Shown piece by piece: positions 28,131-28,788 of a stretch of DNA of 64,000 bases. Below the pieces are notes generated by a model. The model had not been told where the DNA came from, did no database searches, and saw nothing but the letters and a program-made list of their open reading frames with translations. The translations under genes and the position numbers were made by a program. Within the stretch, counting starts at the first letter, position 1. Every line of letters starts with the position of its first letter. Origin of the DNA: a phage; assembly GCA_024614665.1 (NCBI GenBank), contig GCA_024614665.1_4861.1; one strand, given 5' to 3'.

Positions 28131-28788
28131 TTAGAGGAATTCGTCGTAAGAATCAGTGGTTGCTGGAGGTGCAGATTGTTGCTGTTGATAACCGCCGCCG
28201 CTACGCTGACCACCACCCTGGCCACCGCCGTATCCGCCACGACCGAAGCTACCACCACCTTGCTGGAATTCACGCGGCTTATATTTCTCTTCCAGGTTCT
28301 GTAAGAACTTCTCGAAGTTAGTGATAAACGCACGTGCACAGCGCTCAGCAAGTTCTAAATCAGAAACCTGCTGGCCGTCGCGGAAAATACGGAAACCTTT
28401 CGGGTAGGAGAAGTAGAACTTCTTCTGGCGGGCACCAACGCCCTGGATTTCACCGGCAATAGCGATGAACGGTACCAGGTTGTCTTCACGGCCAACAATC
28501 AGACTAACGGGCGGTTTGTTGCCGTTTTCGTTAGTAAACTTCAGCATACTCTTTTCGCTCTTACGCAGACAATCCTGCAGAGCTTCGATAATGGTACGGC
28601 AAACCGTAATCGGTGCAGAGAAATAGAGACCTTCGCCCTTACCAAAAGAGTAGCTAAACTTCATAGTTTCAACATCACCGTTGAAATCATTCGGTTCAAT
28701 GTTGAGTTTACGCGTACGGTTTTGCTGATCCGGTTCGGTCTGCGGGTAAAGCCATTTGTCTTTGAAAATTTCTTGGTTAATCATCATT
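28131..28788 (-). CDS. SSB-like protein with Gly/Arg-rich linker and acidic C-terminal tip
   Basis: C-terminus GGGSFGRGGYGGGQGGGQRSGGGYQQQQSAPPATTDSYDEFL resembles E. coli SSB linker and acidic tip; start set at MMINQ with AAAGGA SD. Confidence 0.6.

Follow-up and report, generated by a model that had tools for sequence, protein, structure and literature searches.

ChmC (Chimallin C), also known as Imp6, is an essential core protein of the nucleus-forming jumbo phages (Chimalliviridae). In PhiPA3, ChmC is an abundant protein that is made early, is predicted to adopt a Whirly fold, and forms a homotetramer as judged by size-exclusion chromatography with multi-angle light scattering (Enustun et al. 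2024, PMC11077065). Its dissociation constants are 58 nM for single-stranded RNA (ssRNA) and 184 nM for single-stranded DNA (ssDNA), a threefold preference for ssRNA. The protein was first found through proximity labelling with the nuclear RecA-like UvsX, occurs in the cytoplasm and on the nuclear shell, and was seen bound to phage mRNAs in vivo by enhanced crosslinking and immunoprecipitation (eCLIP), while its knockdown keeps mRNA in the nucleus, lowers phage protein levels and halts the development and growth of the nucleus (PMC11077065). The C-terminal region of PhiPA3 ChmC consists of two segments, one rich in N/G and then one rich in S/D/E, the latter interpreted by the authors as an "electronegative cluster"; deletion of this region abolishes condensates and leaves the tetramer and RNA binding intact (PMC11077065). 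Here, we describe a probable new member of this already known and characterised family, gp29, which is encoded on the minus strand at positions 28131–28787 of a 64,000-nucleotide phage contig (GCA_024614665.1_4861.1; the whole stretch is referred to below as the window).

The phiKZ protein, gp67, was named Imp6 for its direct binding to the import factor Imp1/PicA (gp69), with which it forms a complex of roughly 2:1 (bioRxiv 10.1101/2024.03.27.586873). phiKZ orf67 is essential in transposon and antisense screens, and recent reviews describe ChmC/Imp6 as an RNA-binding factor for export and import. In the Salmonella phage SPN3US, gp29 is one of three essential non-virion proteins that were identified by amber mutagenesis and had no assignable function, with homologues in phiEaH2 (78% identity) and CR5 (42%) but none in phiKZ (Thomas et al. 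2016, PMC5105663); the identities from our tblastn searches agree with these values. The gp29 protein of the window has the same amino acid sequence (100% identity) as a protein found in three Salmonella jumbo phages, SPN3US, SEGD1 and SaP7, and its annotation is "hypothetical" in every database record seen. An earlier note on this DNA had pointed out that the C-terminal tail of gp29 resembles that of SSB, the bacterial protein that binds single-stranded DNA, and had proposed a phage ssDNA-binding protein. The observation is confirmed by our analysis, and the interpretation is partly supported.

Assignment of gp29 to the ChmC/Imp6 family

We assign gp29 as the SPN3US ortholog of ChmC/Imp6 with a probability of roughly 85%, because the proteins share a common family in PHROG (3284), because their alignments are joined by hhalign with a probability of 98.6%, and because the genes stand in the same order. 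The gene and its parts are listed here, with the open reading frame abbreviated as ORF and the predicted local distance difference test of the structural model as pLDDT:

28131–28787, minus strand: coding sequence of gp29 (SPN3US_0029/ACQ60_gp237), probable ChmC/Imp6 ortholog, from the ORF and its translation; stop codon at 28131–28133
28272–28760, minus strand: predicted Whirly/PUR-like domain, residues ~10–172, in the order beta-beta-beta-alpha then beta-beta-beta-beta-alpha
28155–28271, minus strand: disordered Gly/Gln/Arg/Tyr-rich linker, residues 173–211, pLDDT 32–43, with an RGG-like GRGGYGGG followed by QQQQSAPPATT
28134–28154, minus strand: acidic-aromatic tip DSYDEFL, residues 212–218, a candidate short linear motif analogous to the C-terminal peptide of SSB (SSB-Ct)

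PHROG 3284, a family of unknown function, is matched by gp29 over profile positions 11–254 of 256 (E = 4.7e-66) and likewise by phiKZ gp67 (6e-80), PhiPA3 gp61 (6e-81) and Goslar gp176 (1e-35). In the comparison of the SPN3US clade with the reference ChmC alignment, the hhalign E-value is 9.5e-16, and with the low-complexity tails removed the probability is still 96.4% (E = 1.4e-9). We considered whether the tails alone could produce a false homology and rejected this, as domain-only hidden Markov models (HMMs) and hhalign still join the clades after trimming, and several intermediate sequences match the domain-only HMMs of both. Only 44 relatives were recovered in a HMMER scan of 1.84 billion representatives, and the ChmC family is therefore small and phage-restricted. 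Six sequences that are truncated, chimeric or permuted (P0013, P0014, P0015, P0018, P0026 and P0028) were excluded from the family set. Three of these (P0014, P0026 and P0028, e.g., from Salmonella phage SPFM9 and other SPFM records) carry permuted or repeated gp29 fragments, such as the tail first and the N-terminus last, and seem to be artefacts that arose in the assembly or annotation of some SPN3US-like records.

The gene order is shared over five genes: the SbcD-like gp27, gp28, gp29, gp30 and gp31 of the window correspond to phiKZ gp65-gp66-gp67-gp68-gp69 and to Goslar gp178 to gp174. Like PhiPA3 gp61, phiKZ gp67, Goslar gp176 and 201phi2-1 gp123, gp29 combines a predicted Whirly-type domain with a Gly-rich disordered region and an acidic end, its gene lies between a gp66-like and a gp68-like gene with an Imp1/PicA homologue two genes downstream, and it is essential in SPN3US as orf67 is in phiKZ. 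The disordered C-terminal region of ChmC proteins spans about 45–70 residues, and that of gp29 has 46.

When compared to the type ChmC proteins, gp29 is ~30 residues shorter and has no BLAST-level similarity to phiKZ gp67, and its linker is rich in G/Q/R/Y, whereas theirs is rich in N/G. Two differences within the domain weigh against the assignment. The predicted Whirly domain of gp29 is near-neutral (pI of 7.6), whereas those of phiKZ, PhiPA3 and Goslar are basic (pI of 9.0–9.6). In addition, mutation of the PhiPA3 residues K30, R35, R44, K48, K59 and R63 abolishes RNA binding, and only two of the six aligned positions are basic in gp29 (R24 and K43), although this correspondence is uncertain because the N-terminal half is poorly alignable. 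With a near-neutral domain and only two aligned basic residues, the nucleic-acid affinity of gp29 could therefore be weaker or differently placed. Other Lys and Arg residues are invariant or nearly so in the SPN3US clade, namely K27, K43, K50, K76, K79, R100, K122, K123, K130, R136, R149 and R152.

Predicted fold of the N-terminal domain

The N-terminal domain of gp29 is a Whirly/PUR fold, rather than that of an SSB with an oligonucleotide/oligosaccharide-binding (OB) fold, in the AlphaFold2 model that we built as a single chain on a 15-sequence alignment. The model has a predicted template modelling score of 0.70, with 111 residues at a pLDDT of at least 90. The mean pLDDT is at least 90 in most ten-residue blocks of residues 11–160 and falls below 50 in residues 173–218. 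A fold search with this model returned Whirly/PUR proteins at 4–11% identity, and no OB fold was found among the leading matches. By sequence, the same protein matched no Pfam family at E-values up to 1 other than low-complexity noise, with no match to SSB (PF00436), Whirly, PurA or MRP, and single-sequence and profile searches of the PDB returned nothing meaningful. The earlier note had remarked that this domain was not obviously an OB fold, which was correct because it is predicted to be a Whirly/PUR fold, and had suggested structure prediction as a check; the prediction gave a confident fold, only of a class other than the OB fold.

The Whirly/PUR superfamily includes plant StWhy2, PBF-2 p24, Trypanosoma brucei MRP1/MRP2 and Pur-alpha. 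These proteins bind ssDNA or ssRNA, and the Whirly and MRP proteins are tetrameric, as is reported for the PhiPA3 ortholog. Unlike its cellular relatives, gp29 has three rather than four strands in the first repeat, and it carries a Gly-rich tail and an acidic tip that they lack; the low identity and the missing Pfam Whirly match set it further apart from them.

The C-terminal tail compared with bacterial SSB

The C-terminus of gp29 reads ...EFQQGGGSFGRGGYGGGQGGGQRSGGGYQQQQSAPPATTDSYDEFL (also given as ...GGGSFGRGGYGGGQGGGQRSGGGYQQQQSAPPATTDSYDEFL), exactly as written in the earlier note. The Gly/Arg/Gln-rich disordered segment described there is borne out both by the low pLDDT of residues 173–218 and by composition: the 46-residue tail contains 33% Gly and 17% Gln, as compared to 26% and 17% in the tail of Escherichia coli SSB. 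Two linker residues, G184 and Y186, are invariant in the SPN3US clade. The modules also align in the same order, with a G-rich segment followed by QQSAP and an acidic tip, and the local alignment score of 73 between the two tails is reached by 0.2% of 5000 shuffles (45.6 ± 7.5). However, the tip DSYDEFL has neither the Pro nor the terminal Phe that define SSB-Ct, and composition-adjusted BLASTP gives no significant match between the gp29 tail and E. coli SSB (E = 0.4). Capture of a piece of a host ssb gene was rejected on this BLASTP result and on a blastn search of 5,426 E. coli genomes, in which the DNA encoding the tail had chance matches only (E = 6). The claim of an SSB-like tail thus holds for linker composition, module order and an acidic aromatic end, and fails for the Pro-Phe ending and for sequence homology. 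The resemblance is real but analogous, not homologous.

Taken as a whole protein, gp29 shares with bacterial SSB (E. coli Ssb, PF00436) a Gly/Gln-rich disordered linker, the QQSAP stretch in the same place and an acidic aromatic extreme C-terminus, and the published ChmC ortholog is, like SSB, a tetramer that binds single strands. Bacterial SSB also forms condensates through its tail, as ChmC does. It differs in having an OB fold and a Pro-Phe end that SSB partners recognise, and the published PhiPA3 ortholog of gp29 prefers RNA, with ChmC associating with the phage-nucleus shell and Imp1. A comparable layout is seen in T7 gp2.5 (...DEDGDF) and T4 gp32 (...LDDLLNDL), both of which have a disordered acidic C-terminus with a hydrophobic or aromatic ending. 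The acidic tails of these two proteins autoinhibit DNA binding and recruit replisome partners. Unlike gp29, they are OB-fold proteins with proven roles in replication, and they have no detectable similarity to anything in SPN3US.

One explanation for this likeness is low-complexity convergence, in which a generic condensate-forming Gly-rich tail is followed by an unspecific electronegative cluster that has no specific partner and serves to keep the protein soluble and to damp nonspecific RNA binding. This is the interpretation of the ChmC authors (PMC11077065). It accords with the insignificant BLASTP result, the lack of DNA similarity, the loss of condensates with retention of the tetramer and RNA binding on deletion of the C-terminal region, and the near universality of an acidic tip composition in the family (59/65 members, below). 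We nevertheless regard it as unlikely, while giving it real weight, and the evidence that speaks against it comes from the positions of the conserved residues.

Conservation of the tip across the ChmC family

To describe the tip, we used right-justified logos of 65 full-length ChmC members, comprising 22 from the SPN3US clade and 43 from other clades. In the SPN3US clade, the tip follows the pattern [FY]-D-x-[FMY]-[FLVI], with F or Y at position -5 in 18 sequences, D at -4 in 20, F, M or Y at -2 in 18 and F, L, V or I at -1 in 19; position -3 is [EDS]. The other clades instead end in F-D-D-D-[IL]-P-F. An SSB-type ending, [DE][ILMVF]P[FWYML], is present in 16/65 members, and two metagenomic representatives end in DFDDDIPF, exactly the last eight residues of E. 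coli SSB. The members with SSB-type tips have true ChmC domains, as their tail-trimmed sequences match the reference ChmC HMM with E-values of 1e-38 to 1e-44. One DFDDDIPF-bearing homologue, P0037, lies on a 1.9 kb contig with a 281-aa gene upstream.

The tails of the rest of the family average 31% G, 16% N and 11% Q. In 59/65 members, the last 12 positions include two or more acidic residues and none that is basic, and an aromatic residue occurs within the last six of 61/65. By comparison, such an acidic-aromatic tip is found in only 2/817 six-frame ORFs of SPN3US. Conservation that is anchored to the terminus in this way has the look of a short linear motif that is recognised together with its free carboxylate. 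The fixed positions, always at the very C-terminus, are occupied in the SPN3US clade by an aromatic residue (-5), Asp (-4) and two hydrophobic residues (-2 and -1), and elsewhere by I/L-P-F (-3 to -1). They speak against an unspecific acidic patch, which would not need them.

The likeness to SSB is mentioned neither in the ChmC paper (PMC11077065) nor in two recent reviews, and no phage paper containing both "ChmC" and "SSB" was found in the searchable literature; the SSB-tip mimicry of ChmC is thus apparently unreported. The published eCLIP construct is written "ChmC-sfGFP" (PMC11077065). If this denotes a C-terminal fusion, tip-dependent interactions would have been masked.

Search for a canonical SSB in SPN3US

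SPN3US apparently lacks a canonical SSB, a negative result of limited power. The RefSeq annotation of SPN3US names polymerase parts, helicases, DprA-like, SbcD-like and SMC-like proteins and RNases, and has no SSB product. Searches of SPN3US by tblastn with E. coli SSB, T4 gp32 and T7 gp2.5 gave a best E-value of ~1. A Pfam scan of 194 SPN3US ORFs of 85–420 aa yielded no SSB family among the matches listed, which for the second batch were the best 25 of 51 families, i.e., down to an E-value of ~4e-4. In a profile-based census, the OB-fold SSB is a hallmark of group 2 jumbo phages and not of the phiKZ-like group 1 (Iyer et al. 2021, PMC7824862). The absence is weak evidence because the proteins of these phages are very divergent, as is seen with the SbcD-like gp27 (L014:21017-22165): although this ORF was in the first Pfam batch of 65 ORFs, no nuclease or phosphoesterase family was among the 18 families at an E-value of 0.01.

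Proposed function of gp29 and rival readings

By analogy with the published orthologs, the Whirly domains of gp29 would form a homotetramer whose beta-sheet faces bind single-stranded nucleic acid without sequence specificity and with ssRNA favored over ssDNA. The protein would be made early and in large amounts and would be found both in the cytoplasm and, at the phage nucleus, on the ChmA shell. Its binding partners would be phage mRNAs and Imp1/PicA, the import factor whose gene lies two genes downstream. The exit of mRNA from the nucleus would depend on it, as would phage protein production and nuclear growth. Weak multivalent contacts that lead to RNA-protein condensates would come from the Gly-rich (RGG/YGG-like) linker. 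The last five to eight residues may act as a short linear motif that is read with its free C-terminus, as in bacterial SSB, T7 gp2.5 and T4 gp32. In this arrangement, the tip may fold back on the nucleic-acid-binding surface until it is displaced by nucleic acid, may dock a partner protein, or both. As a putative tetrameric single-strand binder with a flexible linker and an acidic tip, gp29 would therefore work like SSB in its overall design. ChmC thus appears as an SSB-like design on a different fold that is so far tied to RNA traffic and not to replication. The proposal of a phage ssDNA-binding protein stands insofar as the family binds single-stranded nucleic acid, including ssDNA in PhiPA3; it gives way where gp29 proves to be a probable ChmC/Imp6 protein, of a family with a preference for ssRNA in PhiPA3, a Whirly rather than an OB fold, and known roles in RNA and nuclear traffic.

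A stronger form of the same proposal is that ChmC is the missing replicative and recombination SSB of the chimalliviruses, with the Whirly tetramer coating ssDNA in the phage nucleus, RNA binding being secondary, and the tip organising the phage polymerase, DnaB-like helicase, RNase H, UvsX and SbcCD. The architecture of a tetramer, a Gly-rich linker and an acidic-aromatic tip parallels that of SSB. Other observations point the same way: the SSB-type [DE]-Phi-P-Phi tips, including DFDDDIPF, sit on true ChmC domains; PhiPA3 ChmC binds ssDNA, was found through UvsX labelling and is needed for the nucleus to keep growing, as its knockdown shows; annotation, tblastn and Pfam revealed no canonical SSB in SPN3US, and the OB-fold SSB is not a hallmark of group 1; and the gene shares its block with an SbcD-like nuclease. 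Set against this, the threefold preference for ssRNA, the crosslinks to mRNA in vivo and the trapping of mRNA in the nucleus upon knockdown all concern RNA, and ChmC, which also forms a stable complex with Imp1, does not fill the nucleus but is observed in the cytoplasm and at the shell. The SPN3US tip, moreover, is without Pro and the terminal Phe, its domain is not basic, and the evidence that there is no other SSB is weak. On balance, we find this reading improbable.

If the tip faces the host instead, ChmC could be a decoy or hijacker of the host SSB interactome. Early cytoplasmic ChmC would then titrate or recruit ExoI, RecQ, RecJ, PriA, RNase HI and the chi subunit of Pol III, either disabling host DNA maintenance or delivering host enzymes of use to the phage to its nucleic acids. 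Many orthologs have a tip that equals the host-type SSB-Ct or comes close to it. In the SPN3US clade, however, [FY]-D-x-[FMY]-[FLVI] departs from the tip to be expected in these hosts, as the SSB of Salmonella and Erwinia should end in DDDIPF. ChmC belongs to the early non-structural proteins of highest abundance, and part of it is cytoplasmic, but the main text of the pull-down section names only ribosomal proteins, RNA polymerases and ChmB, and no SSB-interacting proteins (PMC11077065). A C-terminal sfGFP, if that is what the construct carries, would mask interactions of a free C-terminus. As nothing ties ChmC to host shut-off, we judge this explanation to be very unlikely.

The broadest claim that the tip invites is that ChmC serves as an SSB-equivalent hub of the nucleus-forming jumbo phages, a Whirly tetramer with a convergently acquired or captured SSB linker and tip, in which the tip is an SSB-Ct-type docking peptide for proteins that have an SSB-tip pocket, be they phage replication and recombination enzymes in the nucleus or host SSB partners in the cytoplasm. 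We put this forward tentatively, as an idea that is less likely to be right than wrong by a good margin, and the joint case that ChmC is either such a hub or a mimic of host SSB is held with similar or slightly greater reserve. If true, the hub would fill the apparent SSB gap, and a single protein would connect RNA export and import with DNA metabolism. With no detectable canonical SSB and a possibly blocked C-terminus in the tagged construct, the motif could be a sign of partners that have so far been missed or of a part played by ChmC in DNA metabolism.

Under the assignment of gp29 to ChmC/Imp6 itself, an essential SPN3US gene gains a name and a likely mechanism. SPN3US is a genetically tractable Salmonella model for the phiKZ-like phages, and the gp29 amber mutant is therefore a ready tool for the study of ChmC.

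Gene boundaries and genomic context

The window matches an SPN3US-like genome in reverse complement, at 97.6–99.4% identity and with two insertions relative to SPN3US. At ~52604–52660, it crosses both ends of the linear SPN3US GenBank record, with ~57 bases unaligned, and the source record therefore has another start point or is circularly permuted. The gp29 ORF had earlier been placed at 28131–28788; a minus-strand ORF is indeed found there, but its in-frame end is 28787, and 28788 misses the frame by one base. The protein would have 218 aa if it began with the ATG at 28787 and 217 aa from the directly following ATG at 28784, which is the RefSeq start. A longer ORF from an ATG at 28826 was rejected because it lacks a Shine-Dalgarno sequence and because the homologues all begin at MINQ or MMNQ. 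The only transcription signal near gp29 above shuffled expectation is a hairpin directly 3' of the stop codon. A T-run follows the hairpin only on the plus strand, which is antisense to all local genes, and it resembles an intrinsic terminator only there; on the coding strand, an A-run comes before the hairpin and a U-tail is missing. These two elements and the genes of the conserved block are as follows:

28792–28796, minus strand: Shine-Dalgarno sequence AAGGA, 4 nt before the ATG at 28787 and 7 nt before the ATG at 28784, read from the sequence
28092–28111, no strand assigned: GC-rich hairpin GCCCAAGG-TTTC-CCTTGGGC with an 8 bp stem
29686–30837, minus strand: gp27, SbcD/Mre11-like nuclease by annotation, phiKZ gp65 homologue (BLASTP E = 2e-31, 34% identity)
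28853–29689, minus strand: gp28, phiKZ gp66 homologue (BLASTP E = 5e-32; Goslar gp177, E = 1e-23), upstream flank of the conserved block
26361–27995, minus strand: gp30, phiKZ gp68 homologue (BLASTP E = 3e-12; both PHROG 3209), downstream flank; the RefSeq start corresponds to window position 27968
24648–26348, minus strand: gp31, phiKZ gp69 (Imp1/PicA) homologue (both PHROG 3141, E = 6.6e-157 and 2.7e-179)

The SbcD-like nuclease had been described as lying next to gp29; it belongs to the same block, but gp28 (28853–29689) stands in between. phiKZ gp68, on the other flank, is a non-virion RNA polymerase subunit (bioRxiv 10.1101/2024.03.27.586873). Directly upstream of gp27 and overlapping it is gp26 (30818–31492, minus strand), which is related to Goslar gp179 and is the sole other SPN3US ORF with an acidic-aromatic C-terminal tip (...IVGIGDGEDY).

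Further upstream, a group I intron (Rfam RF00028, 65.5 bits, E = 8.8e-16, full-length model) at 33228–33537 on the minus strand splits the beta-subunit gene for the non-virion RNA polymerase. It is flanked by minus-strand ORFs at 33395–34897 and 32946–33185, and the 363-bp stretch 33174–33536 is absent from the SPN3US reference. A similar intron-split RNA polymerase gene is present in PhiPA3 (PMC11077065). The second insertion relative to SPN3US, at 31902–32292, holds most of a 141-aa minus-strand ORF (31880–32305) that matches nothing in Pfam and is perhaps a small gene of a mobile or accessory kind. In the virion-gene region of SPN3US, nine mid-sized ORFs match Pfam DUF7941, with a best E-value of 6e-87, and represent a large paralogous expansion of structural proteins.

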